DNA of 64,000 nucleotides, taken from contig DAOVDG010000001.1 of assembly GCA_030669595.1 (NCBI GenBank), positions 6,047 through 70,046 on the forward strand. Reading direction: 5' to 3'. The position numbers were made by a program, and so were the translations under genes. Positions within the stretch are counted from its first letter, which is position 1; each line of letters begins with the position of its first letter. Positions 3,249 through 26,898 of the stretch are shown one piece after another. The notes beneath the pieces are model-generated. The model had not been told where the DNA came from, ran no database searches, and was given only the letters and a program-made list of their open reading frames with translations. Source of the DNA: Candidatus Thorarchaeota archaeon. Lineage in GTDB: Archaea; Asgardarchaeota; Thorarchaeia; Thorarchaeales; Thorarchaeaceae.

Positions 3249-4145
3249 CTACTCTGGGATTTTGTCGAGCATAGGCTGGGTCTTGATCATATGCTGATGG
3301 AGGCCCAACTCCTCGAGCTCAAGTCCCATGGCCAGTCCCAGTAGTTGTGTGTAGTAAATCACGGGTATTTGGTATTTCTTCTCGCCAAGCTCCTTATTGA
3401 CCTGAGCTTGAGCGACTTCGAACTGCAGATGGCAGAACGAACAGACGTTCAAAACACAATCCACTCCAACGTCCATCATATTGTCCAGTTTCTCTACGGC
3501 GATATCATTGGAAACTGGCGCGTTGCTTCCGCGTACACCTCCGCCAGCTCCACAACACATGAACTTGTCCTTGTATGGTACGCTCTCAGCCCCAGTGAGT
3601 TCTACAAGTTCGTCTAGGAATGTATGCCTTTCAGTCTGTTTCCAGGGACGATTCTTACTGGGCTTTAGGAGATGACACCCGTAGTGCACTCCAACCTTCA
3701 AGCCGGTGAGTGGACGAGTAACCTTCTTCGTCAGTTCCTCAATCCCGATATCGTATATGACTTCTATCAGATGCTTTGCTTCTGCCTTTGCCTTGTACTT
3801 CAGGCCGAGACCCTTGAACACCTTCTGCACCTCTTTGAGCCTATCCGGATGCTCACGGACTTCGAGTAGGGCTTCCTTGAATGTTCCATAACATCCATTG
3901 CATCCAGTGATGATGTCATGTCCCGCTTTCTCAGCAAGTGCCAAATTCCTTGATGCTATAGCAAGCCACGTGGGCTCGCTGAACGAGCGAATGACACCCG
4001 GCGCAGGGCAGCAGCTTGCACCCTCTAGTTCCTCCAACTCTATTCCAATCTTCGGGAGCACGACCCTGATTGATTTTTCAATGTTCGGAAACCTATTGGG
4101 CATAACACACCCAAGGAAGAACGAGTACGTCTGAGCTTCTGTCAT
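3249..4145 (-). CDS. hdrB: heterodisulfide reductase subunit B (paralog 1)
   Basis: Two CCG domains (CCPAPG...CNGCYG and CCGAGGG...CSFCHLQ). Overlaps the upstream hdrC by 4 nt. Confidence 0.9.
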   Translation of the reverse strand: MTEAQTYSFFLGCVMPNRFPNIEKSIRVVLPKIGIELEELEGASCCPAPGVIRSFSEPTWLAIASRNLALAEKAGHDIITGCNGCYGTFKEALLEVREHPDRLKEVQKVFKGLGLKYKAKAEAKHLIEVIYDIGIEELTKKVTRPLTGLKVGVHYGCHLLKPSKNRPWKQTERHTFLDELVELTGAESVPYKDKFMCCGAGGGVRGSNAPVSNDIAVEKLDNMMDVGVDCVLNVCSFCHLQFEVAQAQVNKELGEKKYQIPVIYYTQLLGLAMGLELEELGLHQHMIKTQPMLDKIPE

Positions 4146-4654
4146 TTTTCAGCCTCTTGCTTTTCTATGAGATCCTTGAATCCAGTCCGCTCCATGATGG
4201 TCTTCAAGTCATCCAATGCATCCTTGTGCGAGTGTACTGTGGGCGGGACCTCATCCAGACCCAGACTCACGCGTTTCTCCCGGTTTGCAGTATTAATTGG
4301 AACTGCGTGGCCGGTCTCCAAAAGCTTCATTGATGCTCTCCGGTGTTCTGGGAGCATGAATCCCTTTTCCGCTGCCATGTTTCTCATTATGATTATCGCA
4401 TCAGTGACCTTGATTTGGCGTGGACAACGCTCCAGACAGGTATGGCAGGTCGCACAGAGCCACAGGTTGGGAGAGCTTAGCACTTCCTCCTTGAGTCCAA
4501 GTAACGCCTTTCTAATGAGCTCACGGGTTCTGAAGGCAGTTCGGCGTCCACTGGGGCATACACTTGAGCAGGTCCCACACTGAATGCAGGTTCTTATCCT
4601 ATCAGCCCCTGCTTTCACAATCTCATCGACAAAAGCGTGGTCGACCTTCTCCAA
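4142..4654 (-). CDS. hdrC: heterodisulfide reductase subunit C (paralog 1)
   Basis: Two 4Fe-4S motifs, CIQCGTCSSVCP and CATCHTCLERCP. HdrC-like length of 170 aa. Confidence 0.9.
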   Translation of the reverse strand: MEKVDHAFVDEIVKAGADRIRTCIQCGTCSSVCPSGRRTAFRTRELIRKALLGLKEEVLSSPNLWLCATCHTCLERCPRQIKVTDAIIIMRNMAAEKGFMLPEHRRASMKLLETGHAVPINTANREKRVSLGLDEVPPTVHSHKDALDDLKTIMERTGFKDLIEKQEAEK

Positions 4655-4760
4655 GTCTATGGTATCTCGAGAGATAGAATCTGGTATTCGAAGACCTCCA
4701 GTCGGAATTGTGCTATTCCCAAACTGAACAGGTCGTTATAAGCATTAAGAATGAAGGTTG

Positions 4761-5837
4761 TCAGTTGAAAGAGTACTTCGCATCGGAGAGAAGAGCAACA
4801 TTGCCCATCCTCACATTGGAAAGACCAGCATCCTTTGCTGTCTGAAGAGCAGCCTTAGCATGCTCTCTACTGGTGCGAGGCAGGTCTCGCATGACGTGGT
4901 GAGGGTGGAAGCCAAGAAGCGCAGTGGGAATTGTTGTGTCACTGTTCGCTATGAATTCGCACAGCTTACGCACTTCAGAAACCCCGACATATCCAGGAAC
5001 AAGAAGGATGCTAGCAACAAGGAGAACTCCTTCGCGTTCTCTCCCTTCAGAAGCCAATCTCTTGAAGTTCTTTAAGACAACCTTGTTGGAAATACCCGTA
5101 AGTGCAGTGTACAACTCCGGTGTGACAGCCTTTAGGTCGAACTTGATTGTGCCTCCGCTCTTCCTAACAACCTCTGTTATTCGTCCTAGCCACTTGCTTG
5201 AGATGTTACCATTTGTTTCATAGCACACTCGAATTCTTCTCTTTTCGTTGAGTATTCTTGAGGTTTCTATGGAGTGAGAGGGGTTACAGGCTGGGTCTCC
5301 TCCAAAATAGCAAACACAGGCTGTTCTCTCATCTGCAGAGGAGGCAAGCTCTTGAGGTGTCATCAACGGTGTACCCTTCACCATCATCTGTCGGAAGCTT
5401 GCGTTTTGGCAGAACAGGCAGTCAGAGTTGCAGGATCCGTAGAATACCGCGAGGTTGTTGAGCCGTTTCGAATCCACAATCAATGAGCTCCGCGTCACTG
5501 GACAGACCCAATCAGCAACACAATTGGTCGGAAGAGGATCGAAGTACCACGAAACAATGGCTTGTCCTGGGAACCGCTCCACAACTTCTCCATTCTCTAC
5601 GCCACGGAGATGACAGAAACCCAGCTTGCCCTCTTCGATTCTGCAGTGGTTCCCACAATCAGGGCAGACGATGTCCCCTGCGGTAGGGATTGCCTGGACG
5701 AGCTTATCGATTCTCCTGATTGTCTTGTGTGACTCTTGGGCTATTGTCGTTAGTGAACTGTCAGCCTCAAGGCACTCAGCACAGTATCCAATTGAATGTG
5801 ATACTAGTCTTGTATCGTGGTTTGGACAGAACATCAT
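4761..5837 (-). CDS. radical SAM protein (PflA/PflX-like activating-enzyme family) with Cys-rich N-terminal domain
   Basis: CNSDCLFCQN is a Cx3Cx2C radical SAM motif. The N-terminus carries CPNH...CAEC...CPDCGNHC. The gene sits between two divergent hdrCB pairs. Confidence 0.8.
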   Translation of the reverse strand: MMFCPNHDTRLVSHSIGYCAECLEADSSLTTIAQESHKTIRRIDKLVQAIPTAGDIVCPDCGNHCRIEEGKLGFCHLRGVENGEVVERFPGQAIVSWYFDPLPTNCVADWVCPVTRSSLIVDSKRLNNLAVFYGSCNSDCLFCQNASFRQMMVKGTPLMTPQELASSADERTACVCYFGGDPACNPSHSIETSRILNEKRRIRVCYETNGNISSKWLGRITEVVRKSGGTIKFDLKAVTPELYTALTGISNKVVLKNFKRLASEGREREGVLLVASILLVPGYVGVSEVRKLCEFIANSDTTIPTALLGFHPHHVMRDLPRTSREHAKAALQTAKDAGLSNVRMGNVALLSDAKYSFN

Positions 5838-5948
5838 TGCTTAGTATGGAGGTAACGTGAATGAGTCTTTGCCTTCATAGCCACGCTCGTTTGACAATGG
5901 ATTTAAGGCTATGATTCAAGCCTTCGCGCGCGCAGTCGGTGCGTTACA

Positions 5949-6554
5949 GTGACCACAACTGAAGAGAAACCTGCAATTGACATTGATGATGTTGATCTCG
6001 AGTTCATAGAGATAATCAAGAAGACCGGAGGTCCCAACATTCACAACTGCTACCAATGTGGAACGTGCAGCGGTAGCTGTCCCGCAGGCGCCCTTACGAA
6101 TTTCTTAGTGAGAAACACAATCAGAAAGGCCCTCTTGGGCCTCAAGGAGGAAGTCATCTCTTCACCAGATCTCTGGTACTGCACTACCTGCTACGCCTGC
6201 ACTGACAGGTGTCCTCAGGATGTCAAGCCAACTGATGTCATCAAGGCGATTCGCAATATCGCCGTTGCAGAGGGATACATGTTGGGGTCGCACCAGAAGG
6301 TGGCAGCCAAAGTAGTCGAAGCCGCACATGCCGTTCCCCTGGATAAGGAATCATGGCAGAATCTCAGGGTGAAAGTGGGTCTTGAACCAGTGCCGCCGAA
6401 TGCCAGTGGCAATCCATGGGCAGTCGATGAGATCAGGAAGATTACAAAGAAGAGCGGTTTTGAAAAGCTGATTGGTTACAGGGAGTTCGTGAAGGCTCAG
6501 AAAGAGAAGGCCAAGAAAAAGGCTGAAGAGAAGAAGGCCCAGAAAAAGGAGTGA
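5949..6554 (+). CDS. hdrC: heterodisulfide reductase subunit C (paralog 2) with Lys-rich C-terminal tail
   Basis: CYQCGTCSGSCP and CTTCYACTDRCP motifs. C-terminal KAQKEKAKKKAEEKKAQKKE tail. Confidence 0.9.
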   Translation: MTTTEEKPAIDIDDVDLEFIEIIKKTGGPNIHNCYQCGTCSGSCPAGALTNFLVRNTIRKALLGLKEEVISSPDLWYCTTCYACTDRCPQDVKPTDVIKAIRNIAVAEGYMLGSHQKVAAKVVEAAHAVPLDKESWQNLRVKVGLEPVPPNASGNPWAVDEIRKITKKSGFEKLIGYREFVKAQKEKAKKKAEEKKAQKKE

Positions 6555-6560
6555 TTCGGT

Positions 6561-7481
6561 TTGGCGAAGAAGCGACCTGCATTTTACCATTTCCTTGGCT
6601 GCGTCACACCCCATCGTTACCCCAGCGTTGAGCGGGCAACCAACCTAGTCTTCGAGGATCTTGACATGGATCTCCTCGACATGGTGGGGGCTACCTGTTG
6701 CCCCGCACCTGGAGTCTTTGGTTCATTTGACAGAGTCACCTGGGCTAGTATTGCGGCACGAAACCTCACGATAGCCGAACAGGGTGGTCATCCAATCACT
6801 ACTGGATGCAACGGCTGTTTCGCCAGTCTATTCGACTCAAACTACGAGCTGAAGCATGATGAAGAACTGAGAAAGGCAGTCAACGAGAATCTTGCCGAGA
6901 TTGGACGCGAGTTCAAAGGTAGCATTGAGGTCACCCACTACGTTGACGCGCTATTTGACACCGCAGGTCTTTCGAAGATCCGGAAACATGTCACTCATCC
7001 GTTGAAGGGCGTGCGGATGGCATTGCACCCGGGGTGCCACTGGCTCAGACCCAGCGCAATCAAGAAGAAAGACAATTCCGAGCGGCCTCACATATTTCGC
7101 GAATTGTGTGAAACTTCCGGTGCCACCTATGTTCCGTATAAGGATGAATTGATATGTTGCGGGGCTGGAGGTGCGGTGAGAACCGCGGACCTAGAGGTTT
7201 CCCTCCGTTTCACCAAGCAGAAATTCGAATCCATAATAGCTGCAGGGGGTGCTGATATGATAGTAACCCCATGCCCGTTCTGTCTACTACAGCTAGACCT
7301 TGGCCAAGTTGAGATTTCTAAACTCTTTGGGGTTGACTTCAACTTCGATATACTTCACGTTTCCGAACTTCTCGCTCTCGCATTCGGACACAGTCCCAAC
7401 GAATTCGGATTGGCAACGCATCTCCAATATCTGCAACGCAAGAGTCAGCCGAACTGGGGCCGGTTAGGTATTGAAACGTGA
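6561..7481 (+). CDS. hdrB: heterodisulfide reductase subunit B (paralog 2)
   Basis: CCG domains (CCPAPG...CNGCF and CCGAGGA...CPFCLLQ). Clearly paralogous to 3249..4145. Confidence 0.9.
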   Translation: MAKKRPAFYHFLGCVTPHRYPSVERATNLVFEDLDMDLLDMVGATCCPAPGVFGSFDRVTWASIAARNLTIAEQGGHPITTGCNGCFASLFDSNYELKHDEELRKAVNENLAEIGREFKGSIEVTHYVDALFDTAGLSKIRKHVTHPLKGVRMALHPGCHWLRPSAIKKKDNSERPHIFRELCETSGATYVPYKDELICCGAGGAVRTADLEVSLRFTKQKFESIIAAGGADMIVTPCPFCLLQLDLGQVEISKLFGVDFNFDILHVSELLALAFGHSPNEFGLATHLQYLQRKSQPNWGRLGIET

Positions 7482-7627
7482 TGGGCGAGGGAACAGCTCG
7501 CGGTCAGCCTTGACAGGTTACTGGTAGGCCTAGACGGTTAACGCGAACGTTCTTGCCCCCTCATCAGGGGGAATAGTGTCCTCTGTGTTGCCCATCTCCT
7601 TGGCCCACTTGCGACCCCCTCGACGGT

Positions 7628-7945
7628 TCAGTTCCTAACGAGTACGCGAACTTCTCTGCTAGACCCCTTAGATAGGACACACTCTTGAACAATGCGATCG
7701 TACACGAATTCCTCCCAGACTTCAGATGCGTTGGTCATCCAAGTACACAGGAACGCCAGATACATGTAATTCAGGTTCTTGCCAGACACACGGAATGGGG
7801 ACAGAGAGCCTGCGGATGTCAGAAGCCGTGTGTACAGTTCGTTGCTGCAGCATTTGTCGTGGCCATGTCCATGGTAGTAGAAGGCTTTCTCTTCCTCAAG
7901 TCTTTCTAGGATAGCCGCTCTGTTGACATCATCGGGAACGATCAT
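7628..7945 (-). CDS. hypothetical protein
   Basis: ORF only, with no recognisable motif apart from HGHGHDKCC. Co-directional with the upstream surface-protein gene. Confidence 0.25.
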   Translation of the reverse strand: MIVPDDVNRAAILERLEEEKAFYYHGHGHDKCCSNELYTRLLTSAGSLSPFRVSGKNLNYMYLAFLCTWMTNASEVWEEFVYDRIVQECVLSKGSSREVRVLVRN

Positions 7946-8081
7946 TATCGAAACGTATGGCGTTACCTCCGGTTCCGAGTCTGATTATCTGGTGGCATGT
8001 CACAGAGAACTCATTGTCCGACTTCTCGATGTGCTCGCACCTTGTGTTTCAGAAGTATTCATTGAGAATACCCATGAGTTG

Positions 8082-10976
8082 TCAACTCTCACTATGAGTC
8101 TTCTCCGTGCCTGTCTCATGCTCCTTTTCTCCAGAATCTAATTCATGACTGGTGGATGCAAGTTCGCTCAGCGCCCTACGTGTTCTCTCTGCATCCTCTT
8201 TGGCTCGTTCCTTCTGTCTTGATTTCTCTAGACGATGTCCAATGGAGTACAAGATCGCAACCGAAACAACTAGAGCGAAGGCAAGTCCAATGAGCGGCAG
8301 ATTGTAGATGAGAAGCTCATCCAGAGGTAACCAGGGGTCTAGTGGATCATACCCATGCGCTACTTCCCATCCATCTCCAATCCCATCGCCATCACTATCG
8401 ACATTGCACGGGTCTGTACCTCGTTGATACTCATCGATGTTAGACAAGCCATCAGCATCACAATCGCCGTCTGCGTCGACGACTAGTGGGTTCAGACCGA
8501 ACTGTACTTCCCAACCATCCGCCATGCCATCACTGTCAGTGTCATTGTCACAAGGGTCGGTTTCGTGTTCATATTCTTGAAGATTGGGAAGACCATCAGA
8601 GTCTGCATCACCTTGAGCATCATCGTTCAGTGGGTCCAGCGCATTGGCCACTTCCCAGCCGTCCGGCATTCCGTCACTGTCAGTGTCGTTATCACGTGGG
8701 CTCGTGCCATGATGATACTCTTCTAGATTCGAGAGTCCGTCGGAGTCGGGGTCATCACCAGCATCATTCCCTGTAGCATTGAGCATGTATCGAATTTCCC
8801 AGCCGTCTGGCATGCCATCACTGTCAGTGTCGTTATTATATCGGTCAGTACCAAGCTGGATCTCTTCTAGGTCGAGCAATCCGTCGCCGTCACTGTCTTG
8901 GAAGGGTAGCTTGAACACAAAACAATCCGCAGTCCCACCATTGTACGAGCTGTCATATGCATTCACTGTGGGGAAATCAGAGGATTCTGTATAGCCCGTC
9001 ACATACACATTACCTATGGAATCCATAGCAATCGAAATCCCTCTATCCTCTGAAGACCCTCCAAAGTAGTTGGAGTAACGAAGTGAGTCACCAGTTGCGT
9101 TGATCCTGAAAACGAAGCAATCACCCTCTCCTCCGTTATACACACCACCAAGCGGACTCACTATAGGAAAATCAGAGGAGCCTGTATCGCCTGTTACGTA
9201 GGCGTTGCCATCGGAATCAATTGCGATGGATTGGGCGTAATCTGAGGATGACCCGCCGATGTAGGTGGAATAGAATAGTTCGCTGCCAGTGGCATTCAGC
9301 TTGAACACGAAACAATCACCCGCTCCATTGTACGAGTTGTCATATGCGCTCACTGTGGGGAAATCAGAGGACCTTGTGCTTCCTGTCACGTAGGCGCTAC
9401 CCTCAGAATCAACTGTGATAGATTCCCCGTCGTCCGAGGATGACCCGCCGATGTAGGTGGAATAAAATAGTCCATTGCCCGCAGCATTCAGCTTCAGCAA
9501 GAAACAGTCATCTTCTCCATTGTACGAGTTGTCATATGCGCTCACTGTGGGGAAATCAGAGGACCTTGTGCTTCCTGTCACGTAGGCGCTACCCTCAGAA
9601 TCAATCGCAATGGCATGAGCCCAATCCATTTCAGAACCTCCAACGAATGTGGAATATACCAGTCCGCTTCCGTTGGCATTAAGCTTGAACACAAAACAGT
9701 CTATGTTTCCATTATGTGAGCCGTCAAACGGATTTGCTGTCGGAAAGTCCAAGGACTTTGTGCATCCAGTCACGTAGACATTGCCTGTAGAGTCTGCCAT
9801 GACAGATTCTCCCGAATCCCGGCCGGACCCACCGATATAGGTGAAGTAGACCAGTTCGTTGCCGGTAGCATTCAGCTTGAACACGAAGCAGTCACCTCCT
9901 CCATTGTACGAGCTGTCATATGCGTTCATAGTGGCAAGGTCGGTGCAATGCGTGCATCCAGTGACGTAGGCGTTGCCCTCAGAATCAATCGCAATGGCAA
10001 GAGGCCAATCCCATCCAGAACCTCCGACGAATGTGGAGTATATCAGTCCGTTGCCAGTGGCATTGAGTTTGAACACAAAACAGTCATCTTCTCCATTGTA
10101 CGAGCTGTCATATGCGTTCACTGTGGGGAAGTCGGAGGATCTTGTAATTCCTGTAACATAGATGCTGCCTGTTGAGTCAACTGCTATGGAAGTCCCCACG
10201 TCAAAGCTAGAACCACCAACATATGTCGAGTAGAGAAACGGATTAACGACGAGTTCCTGTGATCTGTCGAAATCCCCCACCGCGAAACCGAAAGTGCTAG
10301 GTCCCTTCGATATGAACATCACTCCCACTTCCATTGAGTCCTGAAATGCCTTGACATTGCTGTCTAGGAACATTCCTCCTTCAATGCAATCCCCCACCAA
10401 TCTAGCTTCTATGTCAAGGACATCGTAGCCATCGCATCGGATTTCGATGGAATCGGGGTCTGCACTTGGCGCCATTCTGAACTCGCACCTTATGCCGTGT
10501 TTCTCTATGCGATAGACGAGGCTGATTCCTGGCCAAAGACTGTCATACACGACCTGAGTGAACCCGCGGATGCCCGTGAAAAGACCTCGCCCAGCCAGGA
10601 GGTAGTTCGTGTGATAGGCGGCTGGACCAGTGCCTCTCGGGGCTGCATCTCTCGCTCCCTCGAACGTCAATGTGACATTGTTCTCTAGACAGCTCATCCA
10701 CAGCAGAACCCGGTTCTCAGCAAAGCCAATAAACCCCCCTGGCATTCGACCATAGAACATCAGTTCGCTGCTGTCGATCTGTCCGACATTCTCATAGAAA
10801 TGGTGTTTCCATATCTCGGCCGCCATTTGAGCCATTGCCTTGTCATCACTTGGAATGCTTGCTGGAGCGCCGCTGTTCTGATTGGCAACCATAGTCACAG
10901 CCTGAGCACATGCCATCCATGCTAGACTGACTAGGAGCAAGAATCCGACGGTTCTCATCTGTTTCACTGATGACAC
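8082..10976 (-). CDS. large cell-surface protein with beta-propeller (SBBP-like) repeats, Asp-rich calcium-binding (thrombospondin type 3-like) repeats and C-terminal TM anchor
   Basis: Signal peptide MRTVGFLLLVSLAWMACAQA. About 8 repeats of the unit VTGxTxSSDFPTxNAYDxSYNGxxDCFVFKLNATGNxLxYSTYxGGS. Repeated DTDSDGMPDGWE and DSDGLSNLEEY units follow. The C-terminus has a TM helix LIGLAFALVVSVAILYSIG and a charged tail. Confidence 0.8.
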   Translation of the reverse strand: MSSVKQMRTVGFLLLVSLAWMACAQAVTMVANQNSGAPASIPSDDKAMAQMAAEIWKHHFYENVGQIDSSELMFYGRMPGGFIGFAENRVLLWMSCLENNVTLTFEGARDAAPRGTGPAAYHTNYLLAGRGLFTGIRGFTQVVYDSLWPGISLVYRIEKHGIRCEFRMAPSADPDSIEIRCDGYDVLDIEARLVGDCIEGGMFLDSNVKAFQDSMEVGVMFISKGPSTFGFAVGDFDRSQELVVNPFLYSTYVGGSSFDVGTSIAVDSTGSIYVTGITRSSDFPTVNAYDSSYNGEDDCFVFKLNATGNGLIYSTFVGGSGWDWPLAIAIDSEGNAYVTGCTHCTDLATMNAYDSSYNGGGDCFVFKLNATGNELVYFTYIGGSGRDSGESVMADSTGNVYVTGCTKSLDFPTANPFDGSHNGNIDCFVFKLNANGSGLVYSTFVGGSEMDWAHAIAIDSEGSAYVTGSTRSSDFPTVSAYDNSYNGEDDCFLLKLNAAGNGLFYSTYIGGSSSDDGESITVDSEGSAYVTGSTRSSDFPTVSAYDNSYNGAGDCFVFKLNATGSELFYSTYIGGSSSDYAQSIAIDSDGNAYVTGDTGSSDFPIVSPLGGVYNGGEGDCFVFRINATGDSLRYSNYFGGSSEDRGISIAMDSIGNVYVTGYTESSDFPTVNAYDSSYNGGTADCFVFKLPFQDSDGDGLLDLEEIQLGTDRYNNDTDSDGMPDGWEIRYMLNATGNDAGDDPDSDGLSNLEEYHHGTSPRDNDTDSDGMPDGWEVANALDPLNDDAQGDADSDGLPNLQEYEHETDPCDNDTDSDGMADGWEVQFGLNPLVVDADGDCDADGLSNIDEYQRGTDPCNVDSDGDGIGDGWEVAHGYDPLDPWLPLDELLIYNLPLIGLAFALVVSVAILYSIGHRLEKSRQKERAKEDAERTRRALSELASTSHELDSGEKEHETGTEKTHSES
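9040..10170 (-). repeat. intragenic tandem repeats (about 240 nt units) encoding the beta-propeller blades of the surface protein
   Basis: Near-identical nucleotide stretches recur (for example ttgaacacaaaacagtc...ccattgtacgagctgtcatatgcg). Off-frame ORFs 8779..8994 and 9973..10161 share a peptide for the same reason. Confidence 0.7.
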
Positions 10977-11303
10977 CTACTATGCGAGCTGACACAGCGC
11001 TATCTTCTGCTGGTTCTGTCGTTGTGGCAGATCGCATTTAATCTTTCCACTGAATTCCTTCAACGAATCCTGCTGACAGAGTGCTCGGCAATGACGCGAA
11101 TCATGGCTTTGTTCATTGTCCAGCATATCACTCCATTGAATACCGAAGGGAAACCGCAGCAAGTTCATCTGTCCTCCATGAATGACATTATGTTCAGGAG
11201 AGAACTGCTTGTGAAGCGCCTTGAGTACTGGAACAGAGCAAGGAAGAATAACATATTGCAGCAGCGCGTATCTTCAGGCCTCTACTCTCTGCAACTGTAC
11301 AGG

Positions 11304-12146
11304 CTAAAACAAGAGATTCTCTGAAGATTCACGATACATCCTCTCTGCATAGGTACGAATTGATTCACAAGAAGTCAGGAGCTCTTGATACATCATGCGA
11401 GAGTATCGTTGATCGTTCCTAGAGCTGAACGTAACGTTTCCACCGAACCCGAAATCTCTTCTGCATCTGTGTGCTGAGTTGAAGTAGATCTGAAGAACCC
11501 TACCATAGACTCCTCCGAACACTGCACTAAGGCCCTCTGCTATTGTAAGACTTTCTGCCTTACGATCGAGAAGCTTCTCAAGGAAAAGAAGTGATTTGAG
11601 TGAGTTCACCAAGACAACACATGCATACTCGAACCTGATGTTATCCTCAAGAAACAGAGATGCTTCGTGGACCTCTTTGAGAATCTCGAATATGACATTC
11701 CTTAGGTAATCAGGCTGAAGGGGATACTTGCCACTGAGGTCGGTACCTACGAGTACGATTCCCTTCTGAAGAGATGTACAGACTACAAGATGATTTCGCC
11801 CTCTCCAGGCCTTCGACAGCTCTTCTTCGGTCAAGACTTTGACATCGATTATAGGTCTCCATCCTTTTTTCTTGGATGCATAGGTCCTCAAGATGTCAGT
11901 CACGCTCTTCTTCTTGATCGAATCCGTAACGACAATCAGCAAATCGAAATCGCTCGAATCATCCGCATTGTTACTAGCCCACGAACCTGTCAGCAATCCT
12001 GATATGCACAGAGTTTCAAGTCCTTGTGAGAGAAGAGAGTCTATGTATTCGATGAAGTGCTGTGGCAAATTGAGATGGCCAATCTTGTGTCTCCAATTCT
12101 TACAGCCTTTATGATTCATCATGTTTCTCATGCCTGTGGACCTCAA
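11304..12146 (-). CDS. nucleotidyltransferase-domain protein (Pol-beta superfamily NTase fused to a C-terminal helical domain)
   Basis: GSWASNNADDSSDFDLLIVV matches the GS...DxD nucleotidyltransferase signature. A C-terminal domain of about 150 aa, likely helical, follows. Confidence 0.6.
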   Translation of the reverse strand: MRSTGMRNMMNHKGCKNWRHKIGHLNLPQHFIEYIDSLLSQGLETLCISGLLTGSWASNNADDSSDFDLLIVVTDSIKKKSVTDILRTYASKKKGWRPIIDVKVLTEEELSKAWRGRNHLVVCTSLQKGIVLVGTDLSGKYPLQPDYLRNVIFEILKEVHEASLFLEDNIRFEYACVVLVNSLKSLLFLEKLLDRKAESLTIAEGLSAVFGGVYGRVLQIYFNSAHRCRRDFGFGGNVTFSSRNDQRYSRMMYQELLTSCESIRTYAERMYRESSENLLF

Positions 12147-12235
12147 GTTTGCGGCTTATGGCAACGACATTGTGGTTGGGAACGATGGAGAATCTTGCTG
12201 AGTTCTCCATCGAACCTTCGTTATGGGGCTGACAA

Positions 12236-14044
12236 TCATGAATGGATGTGGATGGTCAGGTCATAACCGCCCCCATAGTTAGTACCACATTGCATTGTTA
12301 GCCGCAGGTAATACATACCTGGCGATGCTTGGAACTGTCGGTATTCAGTTCTCTCATATGCCCTAAACGAGAATAACCAAGTGGCACCTTTGTAGACTGA
12401 CAGTTTCATATGCAGTTCATCCTTGGGTGTCAACCAGATCTCCACATTGCAGCTGGCACCGACCTCGAAGCTGAACCAGTCTTTATCCGCCCAAACTTCT
12501 TGATATCCCCAAATACCTTCATCGTAGACGTTGAAATCTGCATCCGGACCAAAACCGAGGTGAGTTGCGATTGACTGTGAATCTCCCGCATCATCCTCTT
12601 CCAGAAAGATATCTGCCCAAGAAAGCGTGTCTTGCTTGTAGATTCTGGCCCCGTCTATGGTGGGTTGGCAAGAGCTCTTGCTTATGGCGTATTCGTAGCA
12701 ACTCCAGAAGTTGAATCCGTTTGCCGCCTTATCGAAGAAACAGTCACAGAAGTCCCGCGTGGGTTCTTTTAGCGCCCTACCATCCCAACCAATCGCGCAT
12801 TGAGCTCCTCGCTGAAGAAAACCCTCAACGATGCTTGTGTGGACTGGGTACCATATTCCTGTGTCCTTATCTTCCCAATCGTCCGCCGCAGACCAACATG
12901 TGGAGATGAATGCCAACTTCATGGAGCTGAAGACACCCGGTTCAGGAGGTAGGTCCACAGGCAAGATTGGATCCGAACATCCGTACTCACCGATTCCTGT
13001 ATACAAGAAGGTCTTTCCAAGTACCTCTCTCCAGAATCCGCTACCATGACCGAGATGGAAGACAACCTCGCCGTACGGGAACAACTGAAGCTCTTGTGAC
13101 CTAGCAAGATCCTCATGGTACCATGCATAGGCACCAGAGGGAAAGCTGGTGGCAGTTTCGAATCTTCTGTGTACTCGGTGGGCACACTGATAGGTGATTT
13201 CAATGCCAGGGTCGCTCACGAAGGTGAACTTGCTGCCTGGGGGTTGTTCAAGAGAGCTATCAACGAAGAGAATCTCGGATGTTGTTGCACTGATCCAGTA
13301 CTCCTCTGTTCCGGAATCTAGTACCCATGCAAGGTATGTTTTACCTTCTACGTGGACTATCTCCAACTGAGTGCTGAAAACTTTCCCATTTGCTCTACCC
13401 TGAACAGTGTCGATTGCTTCTTTTACGCTTACTTCGGGTTTAGTGTCAATCACGACTTTATGCCAGTGACTTGCGTAGCTGTAGACCTGCTTCCCATTCG
13501 GATCCATTGAGATCCGAATAAAATCGCCTCTCACAGGGATATCATTTATTGTGTGCTTGAAGGAGAGAGTCCAACCATCAGAGGTTTTTGTCATGTCAAC
13601 CGAGTTGTCTTGTTGAGGAAGGATTACAAGACCCTTATACTCGATATGGCTGAGAAAACCGAATGCAGTGGCCCATGCATTCGAAAGAGCTACTGACTCA
13701 GGAGGATAGGATTCTACATCACAAACCTTGGTTGAGTCGAGAAAGTACCGAAGCCTTAGAGATGATGGGTCCAGTTCAACTTGAATTAGCTGGCGGCTCG
13801 TGGTTTTCCACCTCACAGCCCAGAGTTCCTCTTGCCAACCAGCATCATAGACGAGTGAGATACCCTCTAAACGAGCGTTGGCTGGCGGGTCGGCAAGGTC
13901 TTCCGCTATTGCCCTTATCATTCCTACTTCTTCTTGATTCAATTGGCCAGAGAACAGCATACCCTGGTCCATTGAAGACAACACCTGCATTGTCAAGAAA
14001 GAAACCATGACAAACACCAGAACCAGTTTCCTTGTTGCCTTCAT
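12236..14044 (-). CDS. secreted clan-CD (caspase/gingipain-like) cysteine peptidase with C-terminal PPC (pre-peptidase) domain
   Basis: Signal peptide MKATRKLVLVFVMVSFLTMQVLSS. FHLGHGSG is followed about 40 aa later by AFISTCWSAA, which is the His-Gly then Ala-Cys dyad spacing of clan CD. The C-terminal DKDWFSFEV...YYLRL resembles the PPC DxDWYxF motif. The start was moved to the internal Met at 14044. Confidence 0.5.
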   Translation of the reverse strand: MKATRKLVLVFVMVSFLTMQVLSSMDQGMLFSGQLNQEEVGMIRAIAEDLADPPANARLEGISLVYDAGWQEELWAVRWKTTSRQLIQVELDPSSLRLRYFLDSTKVCDVESYPPESVALSNAWATAFGFLSHIEYKGLVILPQQDNSVDMTKTSDGWTLSFKHTINDIPVRGDFIRISMDPNGKQVYSYASHWHKVVIDTKPEVSVKEAIDTVQGRANGKVFSTQLEIVHVEGKTYLAWVLDSGTEEYWISATTSEILFVDSSLEQPPGSKFTFVSDPGIEITYQCAHRVHRRFETATSFPSGAYAWYHEDLARSQELQLFPYGEVVFHLGHGSGFWREVLGKTFLYTGIGEYGCSDPILPVDLPPEPGVFSSMKLAFISTCWSAADDWEDKDTGIWYPVHTSIVEGFLQRGAQCAIGWDGRALKEPTRDFCDCFFDKAANGFNFWSCYEYAISKSSCQPTIDGARIYKQDTLSWADIFLEEDDAGDSQSIATHLGFGPDADFNVYDEGIWGYQEVWADKDWFSFEVGASCNVEIWLTPKDELHMKLSVYKGATWLFSFRAYERTEYRQFQASPGMYYLRLTMQCGTNYGGGYDLTIHIHS

Positions 14045-14433
14045 TTGCAACCCCTTGAAATGTACTTTAGTTCGTCCTTTCATAGTGATCATTCTTCCGA
14101 TACTTCGCAACGATTATGCCGCACTGATTGATTCCCTAGAAGGATATGTTTGTCCAACTCGAAATGAGTGGTAACCCCCTAGCACAGATTATTACATACG
14201 CTAAAGCGCATTTAACCTACGAGAGCGTCAGCGGAGCAGAACCACCCCTCCTAAGGACTTTCTTGAGGGCGTTCGATTAAGCTAGAGAGGGGCAGTTTTC
14301 CCGGCACCCCAGAACATGTTCTCCCCGCAAGGCTGGCGCATCATCAAGACTCAGTGTAGTGTACTACCTTAACATATGGCCATGCATATTTTCCCCGTGT
14401 TACAACACTATTTGAGAAGGAACCGGGTGGTGA

Positions 14434-14550
14434 GCATGGCCGCATGGAGTGGACCGCTCTAACCCCGAGGAGTTTGGTCTTGCAACACACCTGCAATACT
14501 TGCAGAGGAAAAGCCAGCCTAACTGGGAACGGCTCGGGATAAAGGTCTAA
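14434..14550 (+). pseudogene. hdrB: remnant of an hdrB 3' end (about 30 codons)
   Basis: The translation ends NPEEFGLATHLQYLQRKSQPNWERLGIKV*. This is nearly identical to the C-terminus of hdrB at 6561..7481 (NEFGLATHLQYLQRKSQPNWGRLGIET*). Homology and reading frame both stop upstream at a TGA at 14431. Confidence 0.6.
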
Positions 14551-14986
14551 AATCATAAGACGCCAGAACAAAGGATTGGTTCAATCAGGCTCCATGCACT
14601 GAATGTGGTTTTTCCTGAACTGCCTGCATGAGAGCTTGAACATCCTTCTCAGTCAGTTCCAGACAGCCTGGCGCTTCCGCACACACCGGACATCGTTCCC
14701 GGATTCTCGACAGATAGACTCGGGTGTAGAGCCGGGTGGCTTTCATAGCTCTGATATGTTATCCACGTAATATTAAGTCCCACTGGTCTTGATTCTTCAA
14801 TATCGTAAATTGGCGCCAATCGAATACAATCCTTTTGCCATCTTCTATGGTGCGTTCGTTGGGCGTCGGTCCAAACGTGTTCTGGTCACGATTATGGATG
14901 AATATGCAAGATAATTCCCTTCTGCCACTAGTTGCACCGAAGATAAGAATGAGGGAGTATAATGCTCTCTTGCACTAGATCTGCTA

Positions 14987-16894
14987 TTAATGAGTCAATG
15001 GCAACAACAAAACCACACTAGTTCCTTGCTGATGATCCCCCTTAACACGGTCCTTAATCCGGACTCTTCCTCCATATCTATCAGCAATTCGTTTCACGAG
15101 GGTAAGACCAATCCCAATCCCTCTTCCTTCTCTGTTTCCCATTCTGGTGAGCACACTCTCTTTGACCGAGTCGCTCATTCCACGTCCTCTGTCCTCGAAC
15201 CTCATTTGCAGAAACGCTCCGTCATCTTCCGTGCGTTCTGTCTGCACATCAATCTCAACTCGTTCGCGCGGGTCTGCCTTCACAGCGTTGTGTAACAGAT
15301 TGAAGAACATGTCCAGAAGGAATTCATCGGCGATGATGTCATACTCTCCAGTGGTCAGGTTGGTCGAAAATATGATCTCCTTGCCGGGTAACGAACTTCT
15401 CACAGTTGCCATGGCCTCTATCAGGACTTCATATGGGTCTGTGGGGATAAGGTTCGTGTCCTGTTTCGAAGTGCTGGCAAGTTTCTTAACATTAACAATC
15501 AAGGCTGCACTTCTCTTTGTCTGCTCAAGAGCGGACTCAGCAAAAGCGATGAGATGGTCAGGAAGATGATGCTCGCTGAGAATAATCTCCAGACTTACCA
15601 TGATGCCCTGTTGCATATTCGCCAAATCATGAGCCATCAGGTCATTGTAGAACTCCGCCTGAGCCACAGCCCTCTCAAGTGCTTCCTCTGCAAGCTTTCT
15701 GTCTGTTATATCGCGTGCCACTCCTAGAATACCCGTTGGTCTATCGTTCTCATCTCGTAAGAAGACTCTTGACATCTCGAATCTGCGGAGTGTGCCACTT
15801 TTGTCATATAGATCAATCTCCAGCGGAGGTGCATCATACCCATCCTTTCCGACAGTTTCTTCAAGATGGAAGGATTCTTCCAATGCATCCTCGATTATTT
15901 CGAGAAATTGTTGGGGCATTGCATCGCTGATGGGCATAGCTAGCGCCTCTTGTACAGTATATCCCAACATGTCTTTAACAGAAGCACTAACATAGGTGAA
16001 GTTCAGGTTCAGATCAACAGTCCAGATCACATCCTTGACGTTCTCAGCAAGTATCCGGTATTGCTGCTCGCTCACACGAAGCGCCTCTTCAGCACGTTTT
16101 CTGTCAGTGATGTCTGAGAACACAACCTGCACTGCTGGCTCTCCCTGATAGGTTATGACTGATGCAGCCACCTTCACATCGATGGCGGTGCCATCTAGAC
16201 TGACCCACTTTTCCTCGATTGCTTCAACAGAGGCCTCTCCCCGGTACATGGCTTGAACTCTTTCAACAACCTCGTCTCTAGAATCTGTGTGGATAAAATC
16301 AATGACCGCCCTCCCAATGTAATCGTCAGATGATTCCTGACCAATAATCTTCAGCGCTGACTGATTGGCATAGATGATCTTCCCTGACCTGTGGACTGCA
16401 ATGCCAAGGGGTGAGTTCTCAACCAGTGTACGATATCGTTCCTCACTCTCTTCCATTGCTTGCATAGCCTTCAACATCTCAGTCACGTCCCTTGTCACGC
16501 CAACATAGAACTGAGGTCTATGATCATCATCATAGAGAGCAAAGACTGTGATAGCAATCTCGAGCACTCTCTCATCATATGTTGTACTCTTGACATTCCC
16601 TCTGAAACTCCCTTCTGAGCGAAGTGTGTCAAACACTGAGGAGTATATGTCTTCTCCAAGATGAATAGCTGGAGTTTTCCCACTGAGGAACTCATCGGGA
16701 AAACCGAGAAGGGTCCTATGAGCGGCATTCTGCTTGATGTACACGCCTTCCGAGTTCAGAATAGCAATCGCATCATTTGAGCACGTGAAGATGTCCTCGT
16801 ATAATGTTTCATGAATCGTGCTATTGCCAGTCGACTTACTATTGTCAAGGTTCTTCTTTCGTTGGGTACCTTTCTCTCTTGGTTTGCCAGTCAT
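14987..16894 (-). CDS. multi-PAS-domain sensor histidine kinase
   Basis: At least three PAS-like segments. H-box (HDLANMQQGI) and HATPase region (DRGRGMS...GIGIGL). No adjacent response regulator. Confidence 0.85.
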   Translation of the reverse strand: MTGKPREKGTQRKKNLDNSKSTGNSTIHETLYEDIFTCSNDAIAILNSEGVYIKQNAAHRTLLGFPDEFLSGKTPAIHLGEDIYSSVFDTLRSEGSFRGNVKSTTYDERVLEIAITVFALYDDDHRPQFYVGVTRDVTEMLKAMQAMEESEERYRTLVENSPLGIAVHRSGKIIYANQSALKIIGQESSDDYIGRAVIDFIHTDSRDEVVERVQAMYRGEASVEAIEEKWVSLDGTAIDVKVAASVITYQGEPAVQVVFSDITDRKRAEEALRVSEQQYRILAENVKDVIWTVDLNLNFTYVSASVKDMLGYTVQEALAMPISDAMPQQFLEIIEDALEESFHLEETVGKDGYDAPPLEIDLYDKSGTLRRFEMSRVFLRDENDRPTGILGVARDITDRKLAEEALERAVAQAEFYNDLMAHDLANMQQGIMVSLEIILSEHHLPDHLIAFAESALEQTKRSAALIVNVKKLASTSKQDTNLIPTDPYEVLIEAMATVRSSLPGKEIIFSTNLTTGEYDIIADEFLLDMFFNLLHNAVKADPRERVEIDVQTERTEDDGAFLQMRFEDRGRGMSDSVKESVLTRMGNREGRGIGIGLTLVKRIADRYGGRVRIKDRVKGDHQQGTSVVLLLPLTH

Positions 16895-16991
16895 AGTATT
16901 CTACACCATTGGATGACTGTTGTTGACTAGGATGTAATTATGGAGTGAGCGCTTATTAGAGTTAACCAGAGAATACAGACTGTAGGTCTGG

Positions 16992-17483
16992 CTAGATAGA
17001 AATCCACTTCTTCAAATTCCTCTTGTACTTGAGGAACTCGCCACCGAATCTCTCCTCTAGTTTCTTCTTCTCATAGTTTGCCCGTGCATTATTGAAGGTG
17101 AAGATGATTAACCAAACACCAACTGACGCTTGAGAGAAAGCTGCTATGGCAATGCCAAGATAGAAGAGATGGATTCCAAGGTACATTGGGTGCCGGACAC
17201 GCTCAAAGATTCCTGTTGTCGCTAGATCTTCCACATGGGCATCAAATTGATCCCTATGAACTGCGTTCATGAAATACGCAGCTACTACAATGACTACAGT
17301 TCTCAATCCAATGAATACTCCAAAGAAGTCAAGTTCCAGAGAAACATCGTGGCTCGCAGAAGAAATGAATCTAGAATTCACACCACTGTCCGGAAGAGAG
17401 ATCGAGGATATGATGCACAGATGATTAAGGCTCAGCACAGGGATCGACTGCAATCCATTTACAAGCAATACACGACCCGACAA
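16992..17483 (-). CDS. isoprenylcysteine carboxyl methyltransferase (ICMT)-family membrane methyltransferase
   Basis: TGIFERVRHPMYLG plus the downstream hydrophobic segment and EERFGGEFLKYK are typical of the ICMT/PEMT family. The N-terminal start is uncertain. Confidence 0.55.
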   Translation of the reverse strand: MSGRVLLVNGLQSIPVLSLNHLCIISSISLPDSGVNSRFISSASHDVSLELDFFGVFIGLRTVVIVVAAYFMNAVHRDQFDAHVEDLATTGIFERVRHPMYLGIHLFYLGIAIAAFSQASVGVWLIIFTFNNARANYEKKKLEERFGGEFLKYKRNLKKWISI

Positions 17484-17531
17484 TAAACGTTTTTACAGGC
17501 TTTTCAGACGGACGGTTCACCTACCCGCGGA

Positions 17532-20500: not shown

Positions 20501-20999
20501 TTCATGTCCCGCAGGTGCTATCACGATGAAGCACTTCACAGACGATCAGATAATGGCACAAATTCGTAGTGCACTCGAAGACATGCCTACAGACCAGTCA
20601 CGGATTCTTGCAATTGTGTGTACTTGGTGTTCCTATGCTGGTGCCGACAGTGCTGGTGTTTCGAGGCTCCAACAGCCAACGACAGTACGTGATATTCGCA
20701 TTATGTGTACTGCCAGAGTAAGCGTGACACACATTCTTGAGGCTTTTAGACTCGGGGCCGATATGGTCTGGATTTCGGGCTGCCACTTCGGCGACTGTCA
20801 TTATGTTGACGGGAATCTTGCATTTGATAGAAGATTTCAGATTGCCAAGCGGATTATCGAGAAAGCAGGTTTCGAACCCGAGCGGCTTCAGTTCACACAA
20901 ATAAGCGCCAGTGAGGGGTCAATCTGGGCGGAGAAGGTTAAGGAGCTGACCAAGATCGCTGATAGACTGGGGCCAAGCCCGTTGAGACCAAGGAGATGA
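17532..20999 (+). CDS. hdrA: giant fusion protein: HdrA-like FAD/FeS module, then a canonical HdrA, then an MvhD domain
   Basis: Two GxGxxG FAD sites (VVIIGAGIAGM, ALVVGAGVAGM). An inserted ferredoxin (CTGCGECMRVCP...CIRCMVCVKSC). HdrA N-domain motif RVGVFICSCGINIAGYVD in mid-protein. C-terminal ferredoxin (CVGCGTCEVNC...CQGCGKCGASCP). Terminal MvhD-like segment (ILAIVCTWCSYAGAD...ISGCHFGDCHY). Confidence 0.9.
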   Translation: MNAEMADASSKPVVIIGAGIAGMRAALDLADMGVKVFLVEKNASIGGHMAQLDKTFPTLDCSICIQGPWMVDCSRHPNIEILVHSEVTNVSGTQGNFKVKVLKRTRRVDPVKCTGCGECMRVCPIEIPNEYDLGLMMRKAAYIPFPQAVPNVATIDIENCIRCMVCVKSCRAEAIDFDIPDETVEISAGSIIIATGFKMLDASTVPEYGYGALPNVVTALEYERMVCASGPTGGVIMRPSDGLEPRRIAFVQCVGSRDVNHCAYCSRVCCTYATKEAMITIEHDSNVKIDILYNDMRVFGKGFEEFIVRGKTEYGINYVRGLPSDIGEDPSTHDLLLRHTDETGHKVIEDRYDLVVLCQAMVPNDNTDLMQMLGIHTDKYGFIDADGDTTECIETGVPGIHMCGACNKPKDIPESVAEGSAAAALATLDIVLPKSSDTEAITEVDLELAAGEPRVGVFICSCGINIAGYVDVTEVTKYAATLPSVVHAENLLYACSSDAQEVIKDTIREHQLNRVVVASCTPRTHEPLFRATLVEAGLNKYLFELANIREHCSWIHMGMKDEATSKAMDLVRMAVSKVILYQAQEEAVVSVEPAALVVGAGVAGMAAAEIIAGKGFKVYLVDKEDSVGGLLNQLPTVNFDRVSSQGIIDEYEERLNSNPQIELLLSSKVVNVKGAIGDFQVTTRSGKKNKTLNVGVVIVATGAVELQEKGLYGLGKMPEVITQSQFGQRLAADSGITDGDTFMVIHCAGSREEESLEGSRTWCSGICCDVALNHTLELLERYPASHVFHLYRDLRVSYDGEDRYREVRQKGAVFIKYDRDSPPVVKKGKNKVIKVTVPDMAFGTNLVVEVDHVILATAMIPPESNKQISELFKVPMNMSGFLMEAHPKLRPIDFATDGVYVAGCATAPKSIQQAIAQGRGAAARALIPLVNGTRSAEAIVATVDPEVCVGCGTCEVNCVYSAIEVVPGDGSHDYAVANPVLCQGCGKCGASCPAGAITMKHFTDDQIMAQIRSALEDMPTDQSRILAIVCTWCSYAGADSAGVSRLQQPTTVRDIRIMCTARVSVTHILEAFRLGADMVWISGCHFGDCHYVDGNLAFDRRFQIAKRIIEKAGFEPERLQFTQISASEGSIWAEKVKELTKIADRLGPSPLRPRR

Positions 21000-21006
21000 T
21001 GGCTAA

Positions 21007-21543
21007 TTGACTAAAAGCTGGGGCACTTTCACATCCTTCAAGGGAACCACCATTGAGATTGCCGCTCCTGACTTCACAGAAGTGGTCAAGAAACTGACTG
21101 GGGGAAAGGACCTGACAGCATGCTTTCAGTGCACAAAGTGTACTGCTGGATGTCCAGTCACTGAAAAAGTATCCATCCAAGTACACGAAATCATGAGAAT
21201 GCTTCTCTTGGGCATGAAAGAAGTTCTTGAAACCGACATGATTTGGCGATGCACATCTTGCTACACATGCCAAGAGCGATGTCCTCAGGGCATTGATGTA
21301 ACAGACATCCTGATTGGTCTAAAGAACTTGGCATACGAAGATGGCATTGGTCCGGATGCTTACCGAGAGAATGCCAAGAGCGTCCTAGAATCAGGTTTCG
21401 CGTATCAAACCTCAGGATTCAGAAGGAAGAAGAGGGATGCAAAGGGTCTCCCGGCGCTGCCGGAGGCAAACATGGCGGAAGTGGAGAAGCTAGCAGAGCT
21501 AACAGGACTCAAGGCCTTGTTGGAAGAGGATGAAGCAAAATGA
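21007..21543 (+). CDS. hdrC: heterodisulfide reductase subunit C (paralog 3)
   Basis: CFQCTKCTAGCP and CTSCYTCQERCP motifs. Immediately downstream of the hdrA fusion. Confidence 0.9.
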   Translation: MTKSWGTFTSFKGTTIEIAAPDFTEVVKKLTGGKDLTACFQCTKCTAGCPVTEKVSIQVHEIMRMLLLGMKEVLETDMIWRCTSCYTCQERCPQGIDVTDILIGLKNLAYEDGIGPDAYRENAKSVLESGFAYQTSGFRRKKRDAKGLPALPEANMAEVEKLAELTGLKALLEEDEAK

Positions 21544-25046: not shown

Positions 25047-25052
25047 ACTCCT

Positions 25053-26891: not shown

Positions 26892-26898
26892 TCTCGCA

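Follow-up and report, generated by a model that had tools for sequence, protein, structure and literature searches.

A conserved Hdr supercluster of Thorarchaeota with a gene from an uncharacterised radical SAM family between two hdrCB pairs

The described Hdr systems closest to the locus reported here are the methanogen complex HdrABC(-MvhAGD) (PDB 5ODC/5ODR, 8RVU, 7BKB), the HdrA2B2C2 of Methanosarcina with its HdrA-MvhD fusion (PMC5296606) and the sHdr-LbpA system of sulfur oxidisers, whose gene logic is similar, with hdrA between two hdrCB pairs and radical-SAM genes, two in number, beside the Hdr-like cluster (PMC10332631). Asgard archaea have been reported to be without methyl-coenzyme M (CoM) reductase (PMC8163825), and what Hdr does and reduces in them matters to models of eukaryogenesis and of Asgard energy metabolism. 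The window analysed here is a stretch of 64,000 nt from a Candidatus Thorarchaeota archaeon (GenBank assembly GCA_030669595.1, contig DAOVDG010000001.1, positions 6,047 to 70,046 of the forward strand). It contains a five-gene locus in which the pairs hdrC1-hdrB1 and hdrC2-hdrB2 lie on either side of a gene for a radical S-adenosylmethionine (SAM) protein, rSAM1. Comparisons with related genomes showed that this locus is the centre of one Hdr supercluster conserved throughout Thorarchaeota. On balance, the supercluster probably comprises three ancient HdrCB modules that serve tandem HdrA-like bifurcating flavoproteins, with rSAM1 placed between two of the modules by lineage-wide synteny. No paper describing such an arrangement of radical-SAM and hdr genes was found in the part of the literature that was searched.

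On the minus strand, hdrB1 (3249-4145, 298 residues) and hdrC1 (4142-4654, 170 residues counted from the TTG at 4654) overlap by 4 nt and are preceded by rSAM1 (4761-5837, 358 residues). On the plus strand, hdrC2 (5949-6554, 201 residues with a Lys-rich C-terminal tail) is followed by hdrB2 (6561-7481, 306 residues). All five open reading frames (ORFs) have exactly the coordinates given in an earlier description made from the letters alone (the sequence-only reading). That description had the two pairs bracketing rSAM1, which is correct for the position of the gene but not for its orientation, since rSAM1 is co-directional with hdrC1B1 and divergent from hdrC2B2 only. Pfam assigns two CCG domains to each of these HdrB proteins, one 4Fe-4S dicluster domain to each HdrC, and PF04055 as the sole domain of rSAM1. 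Two CxxCxxCxxxCP ferredoxin-type motifs can be read in each of HdrC1 and HdrC2. Both HdrB proteins pass the NCBIfam cut-off of TIGR03288 (381.4 bits for HdrB1 and 358.9 bits for HdrB2 vs. 345.15) and both HdrC proteins that of TIGR03290 (202.2 bits for HdrC1 and 183.1 bits for HdrC2 vs. 160), with E values from 1e-54 to 1e-114 that are far beyond chance, confirming the gene identities. The third pair, hdrC3-hdrB3 (21007-22442, plus strand, with hdrB3 at 21540-22442; 178 and 300 residues), lies directly after hdrA, and the count of three hdrCB pairs within 22 kb is thus correct. HdrB3 and HdrC3 score below the same cut-offs (306.5 bits vs. 345.15 and 113.8 bits vs. 160, respectively).

The hdrA gene (17532-20999, plus strand) encodes a tandem HdrA-like flavoprotein of 1155 residues that is fused to MvhD. 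The protein resembles the Methanosarcina HdrA2B2C2 system in passing the HdrA2 model (NF040770, 1117 bits vs. a cut-off of 1100), in carrying a C-terminal MvhD/VhuD part (FlpD/VhuD domain at residues 1025-1152) and in being followed by hdrC and hdrB. It differs in an internal duplication that gives it two HdrA-like halves, and in relatives the C2B2 pair lies upstream and the C3B3 pair downstream of HdrA. A second tandem HdrA-like flavoprotein, recognised by its Pfam domain set, is encoded at 30850-33951 on the minus strand (1033 residues). It lacks MvhD, is 37% identical to the first over 1030 residues and has no adjoining hdrCB, and it could be a partner of one of the hdrCB pairs.

The sequence-only reading had also remarked that no hdrA lies in the five-gene sub-locus. 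This is true of the present genome, but the cause is an insertion. In the closest relatives (loci L004 and L006, whose rSAM1 is ~90% identical), hdrA begins ~175-370 nt after hdrB2. The gene order there is rSAM2, followed on the opposite strand by hdrB3, hdrC3, hdrA, hdrB2 and hdrC2, and then, on the strand of rSAM2 again, by rSAM1, hdrC1 and hdrB1. The sequence after hdrB2 in the window diverges from that of L004 within ~60 nt, and the alignment resumes at 17410-17531, which matches the L004 sequence immediately upstream of hdrA. Thus, ~9.9 kb at 7482-17531 were inserted in this genome between hdrB2 and hdrA. The inserted segment encodes a secreted repeat protein of 964 residues (SBBP/TSP3/DUF7948), a PAS histidine kinase, a PEMT-like methyltransferase and proteins without assignment. 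Across the lineage, at least 14 Thorarchaeota loci have hdrA on the strand of hdrB2 and at a distance of 0-3 genes from it, showing that hdrC2B2 was ancestrally contiguous and co-directional with hdrA-hdrC3B3.

These positions bear on whether the two inner HdrCB pairs could work without HdrA and instead give other enzymes a module for electron transfer or thiol-disulfide chemistry, for instance through coupling to the 2-oxoacid:ferredoxin oxidoreductase next to them or in the role of a TfrB/SdhE-type subunit. CCG-domain proteins serve many enzymes, and the pairs show weak NCBIfam matches to SdhE and TfrB. In addition to the lack of hdrA inside the sub-locus, hdrC1B1 lies only a few genes from 2-oxoacid:ferredoxin oxidoreductase genes both here (subunits at 50-1612) and in ~27 Thorarchaeota loci. 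However, two convergent genes stand between the oxidoreductase genes and hdrB1, both pairs score above the HdrB and HdrC equivalog cut-offs, their identity to the HdrA-binding subunits of methanogens is 47-52%, and hdrA directly follows hdrB2 in the close relatives. In methanogens, moreover, hdrA is often unlinked to hdrCB, so its absence from a sub-locus would not be unusual anyway. A function of the two pairs apart from HdrA is therefore quite improbable.

Sequence comparisons of the three copies showed that they are old paralogues, as had been proposed for the two inner pairs. Pairwise identities are 36% (B1/B2), 37% (B1/B3) and 43% (B2/B3) for HdrB, and 45% (C1/C2), 35% (C1/C3) and 31% (C2/C3) for HdrC. 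Against the HdrB chains of solved methanogen structures (5odc_B and 8rvu_b among them), the best scores are 329 bits for HdrB1 (43-52% identity), 319 bits for HdrB2 (45-51%) and 280 bits for HdrB3 (41-47%), with HdrB1 at 49-52% against 5odc_B and 8rvu_b. Every copy thus resembles methanogen HdrB more closely than it resembles the other two copies. A neighbour-joining tree without bootstrap, built from 74 sequences of Thorarchaeota loci, the three window copies and four HdrBs from the PDB, has three deep clades (B1, B2 and B3) that each span the Thorarchaeota lineage, and the three window copies fall into the three clades. Thus, the duplications, or acquisitions, that gave rise to the modules predate the diversification of Thorarchaeota. 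The Thorarchaeota systems differ from the methanogen complex in these three deep paralogous pairs and in the tandem-duplicate HdrA fused to MvhD.

The residues that hold the product in methanogen HdrB were compared among the three clades. A 2026 structure-activity study of the Methanothermococcus thermolithotrophicus Hdr (PMC13261682) names the product contacts in 5ODR, in which the CoM sulfonate is bound by the backbone NH groups of G46 and G198, the coenzyme B (CoB) carboxylate by R201, and the CoB phosphonate by R14 and R240. Every B1, B2 and B3 sequence has the full set of ten CCG cysteines that ligate the non-cubane [4Fe-4S] clusters (C9, C41, C42, C78, C81, C153, C193, C194, C231 and C234, numbered as in 5ODC). 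In the alignment, R14, G46, G198 and R201 are kept in every member of the B1 clade (34 of 34) and of the B2 clade (38 of 38). R240 is replaced in all Thorarchaeota HdrB sequences, a position at which the genuine Hdr 8rvu_b also has a valine. The B3 clade (five sequences, from the window and from L004, L006, L026 and L028) keeps only R14; G46, G198 and R201 are absent from the window HdrB3 and, at each site, from two or three of the four other members. HdrB1 and HdrB2 therefore look like enzymes for an anionic heterodisulfide similar to CoM-S-S-CoB, whereas HdrB3 does not, and its loss of contact residues suggests a different substrate. With methanogen CoM and CoB contacts that are invariant across 34-38 species-level genomes, B1 and B2 are concrete candidates for biochemistry.

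The linkage of rSAM1 with hdr genes was followed by scanning one genome per GTDB species with the rSAM1 family alignment. More than 590 places matched, of which the best 80 were fetched; ORFs were called in them and labelled by phmmer with the window proteins. Among them were 42 loci of Thorarchaeota type and 36 from other lineages. Among Thorarchaeota-type loci with at least 1.7 kb of sequence on the relevant side, hdrC2/hdrB2 lies upstream of rSAM1 in 35 of 38 and hdrC1/hdrB1 downstream in 33 of 34. The order hdrB2 and hdrC2 on one strand, then rSAM1, hdrC1 and hdrB1 on the other, is thus almost universal in Thorarchaeota, and independent look-ups agree on it (L002, L003 and L084, the last labelled Sifarchaeia). 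One locus, L041, has rSAM1 with no hdr gene nearby. By label, the homologues of rSAM1, HdrB1 and the second radical-SAM protein of the window are overwhelmingly from Thorarchaeota.

Outside Thorarchaeota, the linkage disappears. No homologue of HdrB or HdrC occurs in the ~357 kb that flank the 36 loci from other lineages (among them Anaerolineae, Aminicenantes, Thermodesulfobacteriota, Planctomycetota, Acidobacteriota, Ammonifex, Caldimicrobium and Thermoproteota), whose rSAM1 orthologues are 42-48% identical over the full length. The linkage of rSAM1 with hdrCB that the sequence-only reading had proposed to look for is therefore real within Thorarchaeota and absent beyond them. The neighbours of rSAM1 outside Thorarchaeota are a housekeeping mix that includes tRNA synthetases, Lon proteases and pseudouridine synthases. 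No common partner emerged when the neighbours were clustered all against all and the 120 nearest genes were scanned with Pfam; the most frequent family is PK_C (5 of 120 proteins), and the clusters are confined to Anaerolineae. In five bacterial loci (L047, L064, L074, L077 and L079), a protein of ~190-205 residues is encoded directly upstream of the rSAM1 orthologue on the same strand. These proteins, which probably account for the PK_C matches, were not detected in the Thorarchaeota rSAM1 loci. Within Thorarchaeota, a convergent gene for a membrane protein of 330 residues, unrelated to Hdr, adjoins hdrB1 in 28 of 32 loci. As this unrelated neighbour is as conserved as rSAM1, synteny alone can explain the linkage within the lineage.

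The spacers of the locus contain conserved elements that look like archaeal TATA boxes, judged from the letters and from general knowledge of archaeal promoters. In all 37 Thorarchaeota loci compared, exactly one [CT]TTATA[TA]N box is located 142-161 nt upstream of the first Cys codon of hdrC1. In the window, this putative promoter element is CTTATAAC (4735-4742, minus strand), in the spacer after rSAM1. The box lies roughly 55-65 nt before the conserved hdrC1 start and is followed by a GAGGT Shine-Dalgarno sequence. The spacer between rSAM1 and hdrC1 has a median of ~85 nt (n=36), and hdrC and hdrB overlap or lie at most 6 nt apart. Extra small ORFs stand between rSAM1 and hdrC1 in five loci, and the box holds its distance to hdrC1 even where ORFs have been inserted after rSAM1. 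A second box, ATTT[AT]A[GA]N, is located 142-148 nt upstream of the first Cys codon of hdrC2 in 35 of 36 loci; its window copy, the predicted TATA-like element of hdrC2B2, is GGATTTAAGGC (5899-5909, plus strand) in the 111-nt divergent spacer. The conserved boxes thus point to three transcription units, namely hdrC2B2, rSAM1 alone and hdrC1B1. Many Thorarchaeota loci share a 13-nt element, CAAAGACTCATTC (5859-5871 of the window, minus strand), ~20-35 nt upstream of the rSAM1 start. It was considered as a shared operator and rejected, with one occurrence in the window and near-matches at chance level. A conserved leader peptide on the hdrC2 strand at the same place was also rejected, as the small ORFs there vary in length and sequence between loci.

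The boxes and the loci of other phyla were used to weigh the possibility that Hdr gained rSAM1 as a functional partner in the ancestor of Thorarchaeota. Such a partner could modify or mature HdrB/HdrC, synthesise the thiol cofactor whose disulfide is the Hdr substrate, or receive low-potential electrons via HdrC. The near-universal position of rSAM1 between two hdrCB pairs, the short divergent spacer that it has in common with hdrC2, its richness in cysteines with a probable auxiliary cluster and the open question of the Asgard Hdr substrate (PMC8163825) are all consistent with this idea. A precedent exists in sHdr-LbpA-LipS1/S2, where Hdr-like clusters occur with two radical-SAM genes (PMC10332631). 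The Thorarchaeota system differs from this precedent, however, in HdrB and HdrC of methanogen type, which pass TIGR03288 and TIGR03290. LipS1 and LipS2 are BioB-like, whereas rSAM1 is PflA-like and neither rSAM1 nor rSAM2 gives a BioB or lipoyl-synthase match in NCBIfam; both families are unlinked to hdr genes outside Thorarchaeota. No LbpA/GcvH-like protein and no lipoate ligase domain was found among the scanned window ORFs, in which small ORFs were partly covered. The partner hypothesis is further opposed by the 36 orthologue loci of other phyla without hdr linkage, by the hdrC1B1 box that moves with hdrC1 upon ORF insertion, by L041 and the equally conserved unrelated neighbour, and by the rSAM1 sequence, which shows no feature specific to Thorarchaeota beyond a change of C7 to His. 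HdrB-type clusters have also been assembled heterologously without a special maturase. Recruitment of rSAM1 as an Hdr partner is thus rather unlikely. The sequence-only reading had suggested a dedicated Hdr maturase or an HdrBC-coupled reductase, and this suggestion is not supported: none of the 36 outside orthologues is linked to hdr, each hdr pair has its own conserved box (37 of 37 loci for hdrC1B1), and the link between rSAM1 and hdr is lineage-wide synteny that gives no support to a dedicated Hdr function. The position of rSAM1 between hdr genes is, without experiments, not evidence for an Hdr maturase.

The rSAM1 protein itself belongs to the radical SAM superfamily (PF04055, 60.2 bits vs. 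a gathering threshold of 29.5). Its N-terminus contains C4-X2-H7...C19-X2-C22, followed by C58-X2-C61-X3-C65-X9-C75, and the core contains C136-X3-C140-X2-C143 (CX3CX2C-QN). Alignments of 23 Thorarchaeota orthologues and of 30 diverse homologues showed that C19, C22, C58, C61, C65, C75, C136, C140 and C143 are invariant across the family, and that conservation reaches at least 90% at C4 and at position 7, the latter being Cys in most members and His in Thorarchaeota. A DPLPTNC(106) motif is common in the family. The CX2(C/H)...CX2C part is a predicted zinc-ribbon-like segment, and CX2CX3CX9C probably binds an auxiliary cluster. The extra N-terminal Cys motif of a PflA-like protein that had been noted earlier is thus present, and because it is conserved throughout the 30 diverse homologues, it is not specific to hdr-linked copies. 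The best NCBIfam match is the AmmeMemoRadiSam protein TIGR04337, whose alignment covers residues 54-348 and takes in both the CX2CX3CX9C motif and the core with CX3CX2C-QN. However, rSAM1 stays below the cut-off (72.4 bits vs. 220) and has an extra zinc-ribbon-like N-terminal segment of ~50 residues; three distant family members score 76-104 bits. An exhaustive search of 1.84 billion representatives brought up 85 clusters with E below 1e-30 and 290 with E below 1e-10. By these comparisons, rSAM1 is assigned to a widespread, uncharacterised sister family of the AmmeMemoRadiSam and pyruvate formate-lyase (PFL) activase enzymes.

The structural evidence bears on a further possibility, that rSAM1 is the activase of a glycyl radical enzyme similar to PflD or alkylsuccinate synthase encoded elsewhere in the genome. 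Joint Genome Institute (JGI) annotation names many orthologues 'pyruvate formate-lyase activating enzyme', and Ass/Bss-like glycyl radical enzymes have been reported in some Thorarchaeota (PMC8163825). An AlphaFold (AF2) model of rSAM1 from a 23-sequence alignment (predicted local distance difference test (pLDDT) 87, predicted template-modelling score (pTM) 0.88) has a partial TIM-barrel core whose closest solved fold is E. coli PflA, the PFL-activating enzyme (PFL-AE) (PDB 3C8F; Foldseek E 9e-12, template-modelling (TM) score 0.74 on the target, 20% identity). Generic radical-SAM folds come next, and residues 1-125 lie outside the matched core. E. coli PFL-AE is also the sole match in a sequence search of the PDB, but at E 0.005, and the scores against the activase models are far too low (41.8 bits vs. 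231.75 for PFLA TIGR02493 and 31.3 bits vs. 174.35 for PFLE_PFLC TIGR02494), so that rSAM1 does not group with the characterised PFL activases. In addition, its CX3CX2C motif follows an N-terminal extension of 125 residues instead of standing at the N-terminus, and no DGxGxR-type motif can be read ahead of it. No glycyl radical enzyme was found among the scanned window ORFs, nor was a partner of the expected size, ~800 residues. Among the 120 genes flanking rSAM1 orthologues, the large products are Lon proteases and tRNA synthetases by their matches, and the 25 listed of the 123 families found for these genes include no glycyl-radical family. Finally, rSAM1 is present in essentially all Thorarchaeota loci, whereas glycyl radical enzymes are reported only sporadically. 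An activase function is accordingly highly improbable, and the gene to which these genomes' annotations routinely give the name 'pyruvate formate-lyase activating enzyme' is not a PFL activase but a member of an uncharacterised family.

Other routes to the function and origin of rSAM1 were tried. Domain fusions gave no clue, since the long homologues are either intein-bearing or a distant true AmmeMemoRadiSam fusion. The fusion of radical SAM, AMMECR1 and Memo domains (P0265) is genuine, but it is a distant relative of rSAM1 at 32% identity. Three homologues (P0126, P0136 and P0160) have inteins (Intein_splicing, LAGLIDADG_3) inserted ahead of the radical-SAM core. The P0265 domains AMMECR1 and Memo, used as phmmer queries at single-sequence sensitivity, had no match in the six-frame translated window or in any of the fetched loci (~90 neighbourhoods). 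Horizontal transfer from Anaerolineae, the source of the nearest outside matches (48% identity), was considered, but the Thorarchaeota sequences are monophyletic within an unresolved radiation in a neighbour-joining tree without bootstrap, which allows no conclusion.

Taken together, the favoured reading is that of a conserved supercluster with ancient HdrCB modules and a syntenic rSAM1. The HdrCB modules would form the high-potential acceptor end, where disulfides are reduced, of complexes for flavin-based electron bifurcation that have the window's two tandem HdrA-like flavoproteins as their base. For B1 and B2, the predicted substrate is an anionic heterodisulfide similar to CoM-S-S-CoB, and B3 would have a different one. 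rSAM1, probably transcribed on its own, would most likely act with SAM and its CX3CX2C cluster in hydrogen-atom abstraction from a substrate, either a protein or a small molecule, that has no relation to Hdr, and its N-terminal CX2CX3CX9C motif would hold an auxiliary cluster. Several points weigh against this reading. The CoM-S-S-CoB cycle in Asgard archaea has been described as undetermined (PMC8163825), and the particular pairings of HdrCB modules with HdrA proteins are putative. The synteny baseline rests on few genes, and the five-gene core persists in almost all species-level genomes of Thorarchaeota that were examined, even where the hdrB2 side has undergone rearrangement. rSAM1 is located exactly between two hdr promoters with a ~110-nt divergent spacer common with hdrC2, and no alternative function or partner was found for it. 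The boxes themselves are predicted from sequence only, and transcription may read through from rSAM1 into hdrC1B1.

A bolder reading has Thorarchaeota running an asymmetric, pseudo-dimeric electron-bifurcating Hdr, together with an Asgard-specific recruitment of rSAM1, which would otherwise be a housekeeping enzyme. A single tandem HdrA-MvhD would dock two different modules, C2B2 with a CoM/CoB pocket of methanogen type and C3B3 with one that has been remodelled, and C1B1 would serve as a third. The part of rSAM1 would be to produce or mature the substrate, a thiol or disulfide, or else to modify HdrB/HdrC. This reading is speculative and has little probability. Under the favoured supercluster reading, the locus is real and tidy but mostly ordinary. 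In Thorarchaeota, a single conserved supercluster brings together three HdrCB modules of ancient divergence and two HdrA-like proteins of tandem type, and the value of the locus lies in the correction of the 'PFL activase' annotation and in candidates for the Asgard Hdr substrate question.

Two details of the HdrC proteins vary within the lineage. The alignment of HdrC2 with methanogen HdrC (8rvu_c, 178 bits) stops at residue 178, and the tail beyond this end (residues 179-201, nt 6483-6551) has ten Lys among the last 23 residues, in agreement with the Lys-rich tail noted before. About a third of the orthologues (~12 of 36) have such a tail, and a short acidic end replaces it in the others; the tail is a lineage-variable, low-complexity extension. 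Orthologues of HdrC1 begin ~11 codons upstream of the TTG at 4654. These codons are in frame here (4655-4687), and the ATG of relatives (for example L005) corresponds to ATA at 4685-4687. Translation may thus begin at a shifted position or at a non-canonical codon, and the start of hdrC1 is uncertain.

The second radical-SAM gene, rSAM2 (22460-23626, minus strand, 388 residues, PF04055), is convergent on hdrB3 and has no similarity to rSAM1. Its motif is of the CX4CX2C type (NCPWNRCTFC). Outside a close group of Thorarchaeota, its nearest relatives are bacterial, with 59-64% identity (Zixibacteria, Desulfobacterales), and three bacterial contexts of these homologues are without hdr genes. A role as an Hdr-linked gene was thus rejected, and rSAM2 gives no support to a system of Hdr plus radical SAM either. 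An Iso_dh-family gene (23709-25046) adjoins rSAM2 here and in a deltaproteobacterial contig, and the adjacency may reflect a functional pair or a transfer.

The remainder of the window is rich in genes of energy metabolism. Genes for isocitrate dehydrogenase, a two-gene ATP-citrate lyase and aconitase stand in a row at 23709-30247 on the minus strand, a signature of the reductive tricarboxylic acid (TCA) cycle. A four-subunit group-3-type [NiFe] hydrogenase is encoded at 37263-41322 on the plus strand, near the Hdr genes. A Rfam scan of positions 1-24000 gave no RNA family, and no tRNA was found in the 64-kb window. Urocanase is spread over two adjoining ORFs in different frames on the plus strand (60970-61365 and 61368-63026), with positions 2-47 of the Urocanase_N profile in the first and positions 41-127 onward in the second, so that the split could reflect a frameshift, a pseudogene or an assembly error.

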